From a phage, in the sequence record PZ049713.1: DNA of 59,621 nt. One strand, given 5' to 3'. The notes below the pieces were generated by a model that was given only the letters and a program-made list of their open reading frames with translations, made no database searches and was not told the origin of the DNA. Both the position numbers and the translations under genes were made by a program. The first letter of the stretch is position 1. Every line of letters begins with the position of its first letter. Positions 50,912 to 52,010 of the stretch are shown piece after piece.

Positions 50912-50996
50912 CTGCATGCTTGCATTTCATGTTTGACATGCTTGCTTAGCGGTGGCCAAATGCAAGCACATAAAACTGTGCGAGGATTTTGCAAGC

Positions 50997-52010
50997 ATGA
51001 GCGAGCCAACCGGAAAGGCCAAAGGAGGAGTCGCGCGCGCCCATGCGCTAACGGCTGACGAGAGGAAGGATATCGCCAAGAAGGCTGCGGAGGCCCGTTG
51101 GGCTGCGCCAAAGGCGTTATACGTCGGAGAGCTGTCTATCGGGGAGCTAACCATCGATTGCGCAGTGCTGCCAGACGGCACGCGAGTGCTCTCGCAACGC
51201 GGAGTCGGTCGGGCGCTTGGCCGCAGCTATGGTGGCAAAGACTTCCGCGTCTCCGGCGACGAAGATGCCGGTGGGAAACTACCCTTTTTCATGAATGCAA
51301 ACACCCTAAAACCCTTTATTTCCAGTGAGTTAGCGGCGCTGGTCTCAAAGCCAATTCCGTATCGACACGAGCAAGGCGGCGGCGTGGCGCACGGTATAAG
51401 TGCAAGCGCCCTTCCCCAGATATGCGAAGTTTGGCTCAAGGCAAGGGAGGCTGGCGGGCTTACCAAGGTTCAGCTACCAATGGCGGCAAAGGCCGAAATA
51501 ATCATGCGCGGCCTGGCGCACATTGGCATCACCGCGCTTGTCGATGAAGCGACCGGTTACCAAGAGGTCCGCGACAAGCAGGCGCTCCAGGCGATCCTTG
51601 ACCAGTACCTGCGCAAGGAGCTGGCTGCATGGGCTAAGCGGTTTCCAGACGAATTCTATGCTCAGATGTTCAGGCTGAAAGGTTGGCAGCGAAAAGACCT
51701 AAGCTCGCCTTCACGGCGCCCAGGTGCTGCTGGGATGTACACCAATGATCTGGTCTACGAGCGGCTGGCTCCGAACATCCTTGCAGAGCTGGAGGCTCGC
51801 AACCCAAAGGACGCTAAAGGCAATAGGAGAGGCAAGCACCACCAGCTTCTAACCGATGACGTAGGGCACCCGGCGCTAGCGCAGCACTTGCACGCACTGA
51901 TCGCTCTAATGCGCGCCTCGCCTTCCTGGGACCAGTTCATGCTTATGGTCAACACAGCCTTCCCAAAAAAGAACGACACCCTGCTGCTGGACTTGCAGCC
52001 CTGCGACTAG
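50997..52010 (+). CDS. P63C-like phage-associated protein with N-terminal KGG...ARW basic motif
   Basis: 337 aa from ATG 50997 (GAGGA SD); N-terminal ...KAKGGVARAHALTADERKDIAKKAAEARW...; family assignment from recall, not verified. Confidence 0.45.
   Translation: MSEPTGKAKGGVARAHALTADERKDIAKKAAEARWAAPKALYVGELSIGELTIDCAVLPDGTRVLSQRGVGRALGRSYGGKDFRVSGDEDAGGKLPFFMNANTLKPFISSELAALVSKPIPYRHEQGGGVAHGISASALPQICEVWLKAREAGGLTKVQLPMAAKAEIIMRGLAHIGITALVDEATGYQEVRDKQALQAILDQYLRKELAAWAKRFPDEFYAQMFRLKGWQRKDLSSPSRRPGAAGMYTNDLVYERLAPNILAELEARNPKDAKGNRRGKHHQLLTDDVGHPALAQHLHALIALMRASPSWDQFMLMVNTAFPKKNDTLLLDLQPCD

Follow-up and report, generated by a model that had tools for sequence, protein, structure and literature searches.

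The 59,621 nucleotides of phage DNA analyzed here (sequence record PZ049713.1; "the window" below) contain, between the repressor gene cI and the promoter pL, a gene for a 337-residue protein of the P63C family that is preceded by short operator-like repeats, and the question raised by this locus is which protein reads these repeats. The original prediction, made from the sequence alone, likened two of them to the operator core of the phage repressor CI and considered the gene possibly repressor-controlled, as an induction-responsive effector or antirepressor. Our analysis points to a different reader. Judged by sequence comparison, the region 50913–52058 is a self-contained mobile accessory cassette (moron) in a lambdoid prophage of Pseudomonas type, and the cassette is autonomous, with a site array that is tied to the N-terminal motif of the encoded protein and not to the phage repressor. 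We consider it likely that this motif acts as a portable DNA-binding tag, which together with its own operator array provides negative autoregulation of a lysogen-expressed accessory gene in the slot also used by rexAB and bstA. The cassette comprises the following features.

50916–50925: site O1, ATGCTTGCAT, 5′ of the −35 hexamer; 10/10 against ATGCWWGCAT and an invariant block in eight homologous promoters
50933–50938, plus strand: −35 hexamer TTGACA, fused to O2; read from the sequence, with TTGACATGCTTGC kept in loci L008, L009, L011, L051, and L053
50938–50947: site O2, ATGCTTGCTT, overlapping the −35 hexamer; consensus scan and promoter alignment
50956–50961, plus strand: weak −10-like CCAAAT (inferred), 17 base pairs (bp) past the −35 hexamer, its last two bases starting O3
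50960–50969: site O3, ATGCAAGCAC, spanning the −10/+1 region; consensus scan and promoter alignment
50982–50986, plus strand: Shine–Dalgarno sequence GAGGA, 10 nucleotides 5′ of the ATG; read from the sequence
50989–50998: site O4, TTGCAAGCAT, ending with the first two bases (AT) of the start codon; consensus scan and promoter alignment
50997–52010, plus strand: P63C-family open reading frame, 337 residues, ATG start; Pfam and PHROG profile matches
51012–51104, plus strand: N-terminal KGG..ARW motif, residues 6–36, proposed DNA-binding tag; AlphaFold2 model, motif profile, and co-occurrence with sites
51114–51401, plus strand: domain of beta-hairpin and helix, residues ~40–135, with a weak Bro-N/KilA-N-like resemblance
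51594–51878, plus strand: Pfam P63C domain, residues 200–294
52032–52058, plus strand: intrinsic terminator, AGCCCGCCACTGAGCGGGCT followed by a T-run, right cassette end; placed at 52032–52051 when the immunity region was annotated; fold −13.7 kcal/mol, z = −2.3

Four ATGCWWGCAT sites precede the P63C gene, beginning at 50916, 50938, 50960, and 50989. The two copies noted originally, GCATGCTTGC at 50914–50923 and ACATGCTTGC at 50936–50945 (a 9/10 match), are present together with TTGACA, but the count of two was too low: further copies lie on the opposite strand, GCAAGCAC at 50962–50969 and GCAAGCATG at 50991–50999, the latter taking in the start codon. The exact sequence CATGCTTGC occurs three times in 59.6 kb, always inside 50915–50999, and six ten-mers of the window match ATGCWWGCAT in at least nine of ten positions, four of which are O1–O4. 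The clustering of four sites within 83 bp far exceeds chance. Their centers are 22, 22, and 29 bp apart, and O1–O4 would therefore lie on one face of the helix. A literature search with the site sequence returned only unrelated, apparently incidental matches.

Alignment of eight homologous promoters showed that the invariant columns are confined to O1–O4, to TTGAC, and to the coding region, whereas the sequences are unrelated in the spacers and 5′ of O1. At the position of CCAAAT, which a promoter consensus scan left unflagged, the relatives in this alignment carry TTTAAT, TTGAAT, GTTAAT, TTAAAT, or CCTAAT, and 11 of 49 loci have TTGAYA joined to a site. Two other readings of the repeats were rejected. 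An RNA hairpin between sites would require conserved pairing, which is missing because the central TT/AA changes its orientation from one locus to another, and in L021 all four sites point the same way; such flips at equivalent positions are as expected, since the site is two-fold symmetric. A promoter activated by CII (CP76 type) was discarded as well: similar repeats are missing around cII and cro, and the sites travel without any cII.

The protein encoded downstream begins with MSEPTGKAKGGVARAHALTADERKDIAKKAAEARW. In an AlphaFold2 model computed from a 66-sequence alignment (mean predicted local distance difference test score 78.6), the basic KGG..ARW motif forms two helices (residues 9–17 and 20–35), followed by a unit of beta-hairpin, strand, and helix (residues 42–74) inside a domain extending to about residue 135, and by long helices from there to the C-terminus. 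The presence of this motif goes hand in hand with the presence of the sites. We compared 68 non-identical P63C loci (42–100% protein identity, including one Deinococcus and one acidobacterial genome) and counted GCTTGC/GCAAGC cores from −130 to +12 of the gene start, where the background is 0.14 cores per 142 bp. Two or more cores were present at 42 of 53 genes with KGG..ARW versus 0 of 15 genes without it (Fisher p = 1.7e-8, for loci that are related by descent). Across 140 sites, the flanks outside the search pattern are also conserved (T 94%, A 64–67%), which gives the consensus ATGCTTGCAT. Site-to-site spacing in this set peaks at 21–23 bp, and the largest positional peak, at −4, falls on the start codon (48 loci).

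Motif and sites also vary together. Salmonella phage ST104 pairs the canonical motif (..ERSAIARKAAAARW) with four canonical sites; 933W and its relative L063 combine the variant motif KESSRKAV (..QRKESSRKAVAAKK; the 933W-type N-terminal motif sequence is KGGKARAAKMTAEQRKESSRKAVAAK) with three AACGTGCA repeats; and L041 combines SESARNA (..QRSESARNAALAK) with AATGTACG repeats. All of these pairings occur within Enterobacteriaceae, and the four-site array is found also with homologues in Deinococcus and Acidobacteria. Co-variation of motifs and sites within one host family, and recurrence of the same pair across phyla, speak against a host factor and for a motif that reads the sites directly.

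As shared descent inflates the p-value given above, we sought replication outside the P63C family. Profile comparison of P63C with RhuM (PF13310) aligned the N-terminal motif alone (hhalign probability 97%, ~65 columns), and homology of the two protein bodies was rejected on this basis. Among RhuM genes with the motif, which are 48–100% identical to the query P0264 and lie in non-phage contexts, five of five have two to four ATGCTTGCAT-type sites within 80 bp upstream, some of them on the ATG. Of the RhuM loci that lack the motif, 1 of 71 reaches two or more cores in 330 bp; this negative control comes from a metagenome scan that returned only motif-less RhuM genes, and a scan of viral contigs with one RhuM protein gave no match. 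Sites were also found at a third, unrelated motif protein of 109 residues. When phage genomes were searched with the 34-residue motif by tblastn, almost only P63C genes were recovered.

The motif itself is widespread, and a 33-residue profile matched 11,281 representative proteins at E-values up to 1e-3. As judged from proteins P0121–P0270, this set is dominated by proteins of 60–180 residues consisting of two to four tandem copies; no Pfam or NCBIfam model matched such mini-proteins among those scanned, and their LEA_5 matches are weak. In some proteins a single N-terminal copy is fused to other domains, and others have a C-terminal motif or combine it with an XRE-type helix–turn–helix (HTH). 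The KGG model of Pfam (PF10685) has no match on the P63C protein of the window, yet the profile of its N-terminal motif retrieves classical KGG-repeat proteins, such as P0139.

The genomic setting of the gene indicates that promoter, gene, and terminator move as a unit. In the window, the cassette is inserted between cI–DUF3800/DUF1654 and the left operator (OL) with pL. For close relatives, the representative genomes yielded only four distant loci, and encoding contigs and viral contigs were used instead. Close Pseudomonas relatives (77–87% identity) occur in three contexts, all with the four-site array: in the immunity region, where CI and the right operator (OR) are unrelated to those of the window and OR lacks GCATGCTT (L009/L010); as an island between tail genes (L008); and at the prophage end beside the endolysin gene (L011–13). 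The homologue of ST104 directly follows cI, before gene 24, that of 933W lies in the nin region, and that of phage Lodos near int. The terminator hairpin likewise follows the gene in L009 and L008, and homology stops after it. On the other side, Pseudomonas phage PS-1 shares the DUF1654 module (90.7% DNA identity) up to window position 50893, then diverges, and has no P63C gene. The cassette thus has a predicted promoter (50916–50998) and a terminator of its own, is present or absent among related phages, and takes varied positions in them. We consider it a mobile moron because of these expression signals, the homology limits, the varied contexts, and the lack of the cassette in PS-1.

Two observations concern the surroundings of homologues. 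In 933W (L002, 8941–11000), the P63C gene lies in the nin region directly upstream of roi, annotated as an anti-repressor, and the 180-bp gap upstream of it holds three ACGTGCA repeats. Motif-less P63C homologues (L005 and L006 at ~3700–4000; L035, L039, L080, and L095) share a conserved upstream coding stretch, ..YHKVS..YLPKYIDEF.YR.N.., which looks transposase-like, perhaps of the IS1595 type; this suggests that the tag-less form of P63C is mobilized by a different route.

The mechanism that we regard as likely would operate as follows. A predicted sigma-70-type promoter, from which transcription would be expected to start near 50968, is embedded in four near-palindromic 10-bp ATGCWWGCAT sites, and its product starts with a basic two-helix motif of ~36 residues, followed by a weakly Bro-N-like domain and the P63C helical domain. 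Through the N-terminal motif, the protein would bind its own operator array, probably as one dimer per site and with cooperation between sites. Bound protein would be expected to repress its own transcription, because the sites cover the −35 hexamer, the −10/+1 region, and the start codon. Expression in the lysogen would then be low, self-limiting, and independent of the CI/Cro circuit of the host phage, which would make the cassette portable.

Several points weigh against this reading. Its support is wholly comparative, shared descent makes the Fisher test overstate independence, and the motif-less homologues may form few clades. Fewer than two canonical cores were found at 11 of the 53 motif-bearing P63C loci, and sites are absent at the tandem-repeat mini-protein P0141 and at the motif-bearing P0218. 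Hydrophilic repeats of the KGG/LEA type, to which the motif is related, are not known to have a role in DNA binding. The −10 element CCAAAT is weak, and the gap between DUF1654 and the cassette contains no terminator, so that read-through transcription is possible. CI may also cross-bind weakly at O1, which has 8 bp in common with the CI operator core. Finally, promoter and first ~40 codons could move as one DNA module, giving co-occurrence without binding.

Before weighing other explanations, it is useful to consider the family and the possible role of the protein. Profile and structure searches had been proposed along with the original prediction, and its description of a P63C-like protein with a recurrent basic KGG..ARW N-terminus is borne out by Pfam, PHROG, and the motif profile alike. 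The Pfam P63C model (PF10546) matches residues 200–294 (E = 1.1e-30; 106.5 bits against a gathering cut-off of 26.1) and also all 66 aligned homologues (66/66), and PHROG 2384 (phrog_2384, function unassigned) aligns over nearly the full length (E = 7.1e-122; residues 3–333 with profile positions 4–333 of 338). In total, more than 6,400 homologues were retrieved. Homology extends over the full length to known family members (Mx8 p63, 933W L0095, and ST104 orf23); identity is ~40% for those of 933W and ST104, and p63 of Myxococcus phage Mx8 is also a fold match in BFVD (E = 3e-9). The gene therefore belongs to a known, uncharacterized family. Nothing on the function or regulation of this family was found in the literature searched, in which the module of tag and operators appears to be undescribed. 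The protein has no match in NCBIfam, and the P63C, DUF1654, and DUF3800 proteins all lack matches to the defense models of PADLOC-DB 2.0.

Residues ~40–135 show a weak fold likeness to Bro-N/KilA-N antirepressor-like proteins (P22 Ant, HK022 Roi, and baculovirus BRO). Foldseek matched BRO proteins weakly (E 0.003–0.5), and Pfam Bro-N, ANT, and KilA-N had zero matches among 66 family members at E-values up to 5. Another PHROG, one with a P63C domain, bears the label "anti-repressor Ant". Together, the Bro-N-like fold matches and this label hint faintly at an antirepressor role. RhuM has been proposed as a toxin domain (PMC3710099). Given that the tag is shared with RhuM and that the gene occupies moron hotspots, including the cI–pL slot of rexAB and bstA, we tentatively suggest a conflict function for the remainder of the protein, which would be dose-sensitive, would be made in the lysogen, and might act on foreign DNA or proteins by exclusion, by abortive infection, or in an antirepressor-like manner.

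Other genes of the same slot, namely rexAB of lambda, stk of 933W, and further cI–pL morons, also lie apart from the lytic operons and are present or absent among related phages. They differ from the P63C cassette in that their proteins are unrelated and in that the latter has its own operators and occurs also at other prophage positions; rexAB is transcribed together with cI. The KGG stress-protein repeat (PF10685) and LEA_5 differ from the P63C motif, which is a single N-terminal copy that ends in ARW and is tied to a DNA repeat. In their logic, the C proteins of restriction–modification systems and antitoxin–operator pairs are also similar: a small DNA-binding unit acts on palindromic operators at its own promoter, limits a harmful gene, and moves with it. 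These controllers, however, are separate proteins of the HTH or ribbon–helix–helix type, whereas the binding unit proposed for P63C is a tag of ~30 residues fused to its payload.

The closest analogue is BstA–aba, with which the cassette shares the slot between cI and pL, the single gene, the own terminator, a variant-specific element over the gene start, and, in outline, a KilA-N/Bro-N-like N-terminal domain ahead of a helical C-terminal one. BstA is the product of an abortive-infection gene of ~300 codons that lies downstream of cI and has its own terminator; the protein combines an N-terminal domain of the KilA-N-like type with a helical C-terminal domain (PMC8585504). The aba element is 63 bp long, contains CCCGCC direct repeats, lies across the start of bstA, and is particular to its BstA variant (PMC8585504); in that paper, bstA is taken to use the promoter of the repressor (PMC8585504, Owen et al, 2021). 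The P63C gene likewise lies downstream of the repressor in the window, in L009, and in ST104, and O4 overlaps its ATG. The systems differ in that the P63C gene has its own predicted promoter and that no promoter role has been described for aba. BstA is an analogy rather than a case of shared membership, as no homology was detectable; membership of the P63C protein in the BstA family was rejected at an hhalign probability of 2.9%.

This likeness raises the alternative that the array is mainly a cis element that neutralizes or redirects the protein on the carrier genome, as aba does, with autoregulation as a secondary effect. BstA sits in the same slot with a 63-bp variant-specific element that has terminal repeats and overlaps the bstA start (PMC8585504), and the P63C sites too reach into their gene and change along with the protein variant. 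We nevertheless consider this explanation unlikely: the two proteins have no detectable homology, no P63C protein has a known phenotype, and the module also precedes chromosomal, non-phage RhuM genes, where immunity of the carrier during lytic replication would have little point. A more far-reaching version combines both ideas. The ~30-residue KGG..ARW motif would be a portable sequence-specific DNA-binding tag with ATGCWWGCAT arrays as its address, which sets the dose of unrelated payloads (P63C, RhuM, and others) across phyla and, in prophages, marks the carrier genome as "self", sparing the own phage on induction; this would amount to an independently evolved, modular logic similar to BstA–aba. 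We offer it as a speculation and regard it as doubtful.

Quite unlikely, in our estimate, is the alternative that promoter and first ~40 codons are a single recombining 5′ module whose sites are bound by another part of the protein or by a widespread host factor, with the motif serving in nucleoid association, in stability, or as a hydrophilin-like tail. The relation of the motif to KGG/LEA repeats without a known DNA-binding role and the motif-bearing genes that lack sites would fit such a module. It accounts poorly, however, for spacers that are randomized between loci while sites and motif stay conserved, for a motif that is the sole region common to P63C and RhuM proteins, and for the occurrence of canonical and variant pairs in one host family and of canonical pairs across phyla.

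Control by CI has to be weighed against the immunity region of the phage. Domain annotation identifies the surroundings of the cassette as a lambdoid immunity region, which is arranged as follows.

46255–47974, minus strand: O-like and DnaC-like genes, replication module
48146–48568, minus strand: cII, CP76 type
48656–48838, minus strand: cro, P22_Cro type
48865–48941: OR, between cro and cI; scores against AATTTCAGCATGCTTAAATT are 20/20 at 48865, 16/20 at 48922, and 13/20 for a weaker candidate at 48907
48916–49590, plus strand: cI, HTH and S24 peptidase domains
49620–50330, plus strand: DUF3800 gene, starting 30 bp past cI
50496–50518: strong terminator 3′ of the DUF3800 gene
50654–50911, plus strand: DUF1654 gene, directly 5′ of the cassette; its ribosome-binding site, AAGGAGG, is good
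52066–52085 and 52100–52119, plus strand: OL operators and pL, outside the cassette; 17/20 at 52066 and 19/20 at 52100

If the sites were auxiliary CI operators, CI would repress the gene in the lysogen, and induction would free it to act as an effector or antirepressor. The resemblance on which this idea was built is real, as O1 and O2 have GCATGCTT/ACATGCTT in common with the center of the CI operator, and O2 and O3 lie on the −35 and −10 elements, positions typical of repressor sites. It is limited, though, to the GCATGCTT center of ~8 bp. The CI operators of this phage are 20-bp palindromes, AATTTCAGCATGCTTAAATT, with AATTT arms, and confident ones score 16–20 of 20; O1 scores 13/20, as do the unrelated positions 52511 and 54878, and O2 scores 11/20 (counted by hand). 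Since true operators of this kind lie at OR and OL, the sequence comparison indicates that O1–O4 are not CI operators. Both OL and pL (TTGACC-17-TAAATT, 52091–52119; the only consensus-grade promoter in 48.5–53.2 kb), whose −10 element is overlapped by the operator at 52100, are located 3′ of the P63C terminator. Consequently, the P63C gene, in the position of rexAB in lambda, belongs to the lysogen side of the immunity region and not to the early lytic operon. Moreover, the sites accompany the gene in L009, with its unrelated CI and an OR without GCATGCTT, among tail genes or next to lysis genes, across phyla, and at non-phage RhuM, which makes control by the repressor of this phage very unlikely and, with it, the induction-responsive role that had been envisaged. 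The other part of the proposal, a predicted promoter and control region separate from the DUF3800 unit, holds: with the terminator at 50496–50518 in between, the P63C gene is predicted to be a transcription unit distinct from cI–DUF3800.

A replication origin or a partition site, with the repeats as iterons and the protein as initiator, is extremely unlikely. Four repeats spaced at ~22 bp do recall plasmid iterons, but an O-like and DnaC-like replication module of the phage lies at 46255–47974, no AT-rich unwinding region or DnaA boxes were read beside the sites, and the array is always promoter-sized and immediately 5′ of the gene, chromosomal RhuM included.

Further observations concern the neighboring genes and the window as a whole. 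The first ATG of cI (48916) falls inside the operator repeats, and translation more likely begins at the in-frame ATG of position 48949, yielding MERHERIARA.... The DUF3800 gene is probably co-transcribed with cI in the lysogen, and its product has no PADLOC or PHROG match. A DUF1654 gene is found also in L001 (5160–5417) and in L009 (5071–5382), where it follows the P63C gene on the other strand. At the left end of the window, positions 70–15016 form a near-perfect inverted repeat with arms at ~70–7450 and 7626–15016 that are 99–100% complementary around a center at ~7537. This 15-kb repeat looks like a fold-back or chimeric assembly artifact rather than biology.

P63C proteins are common in prophages, including the Shiga-toxin phage 933W and P22-like phages of Salmonella. 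For this family, the present analysis yields a mobile cassette, a 10-bp recognition sequence, and a 30-residue motif as its likely reader, with the natural specificity variants ATGCTTGCAT, AACGTGCA, and AATGTACG. If the pairing of tag and operator is true, it would annotate part of a motif family present in ~11,000 representative proteins, and it would explain how potentially harmful accessory genes are kept under control as they move between phages with different repressors.

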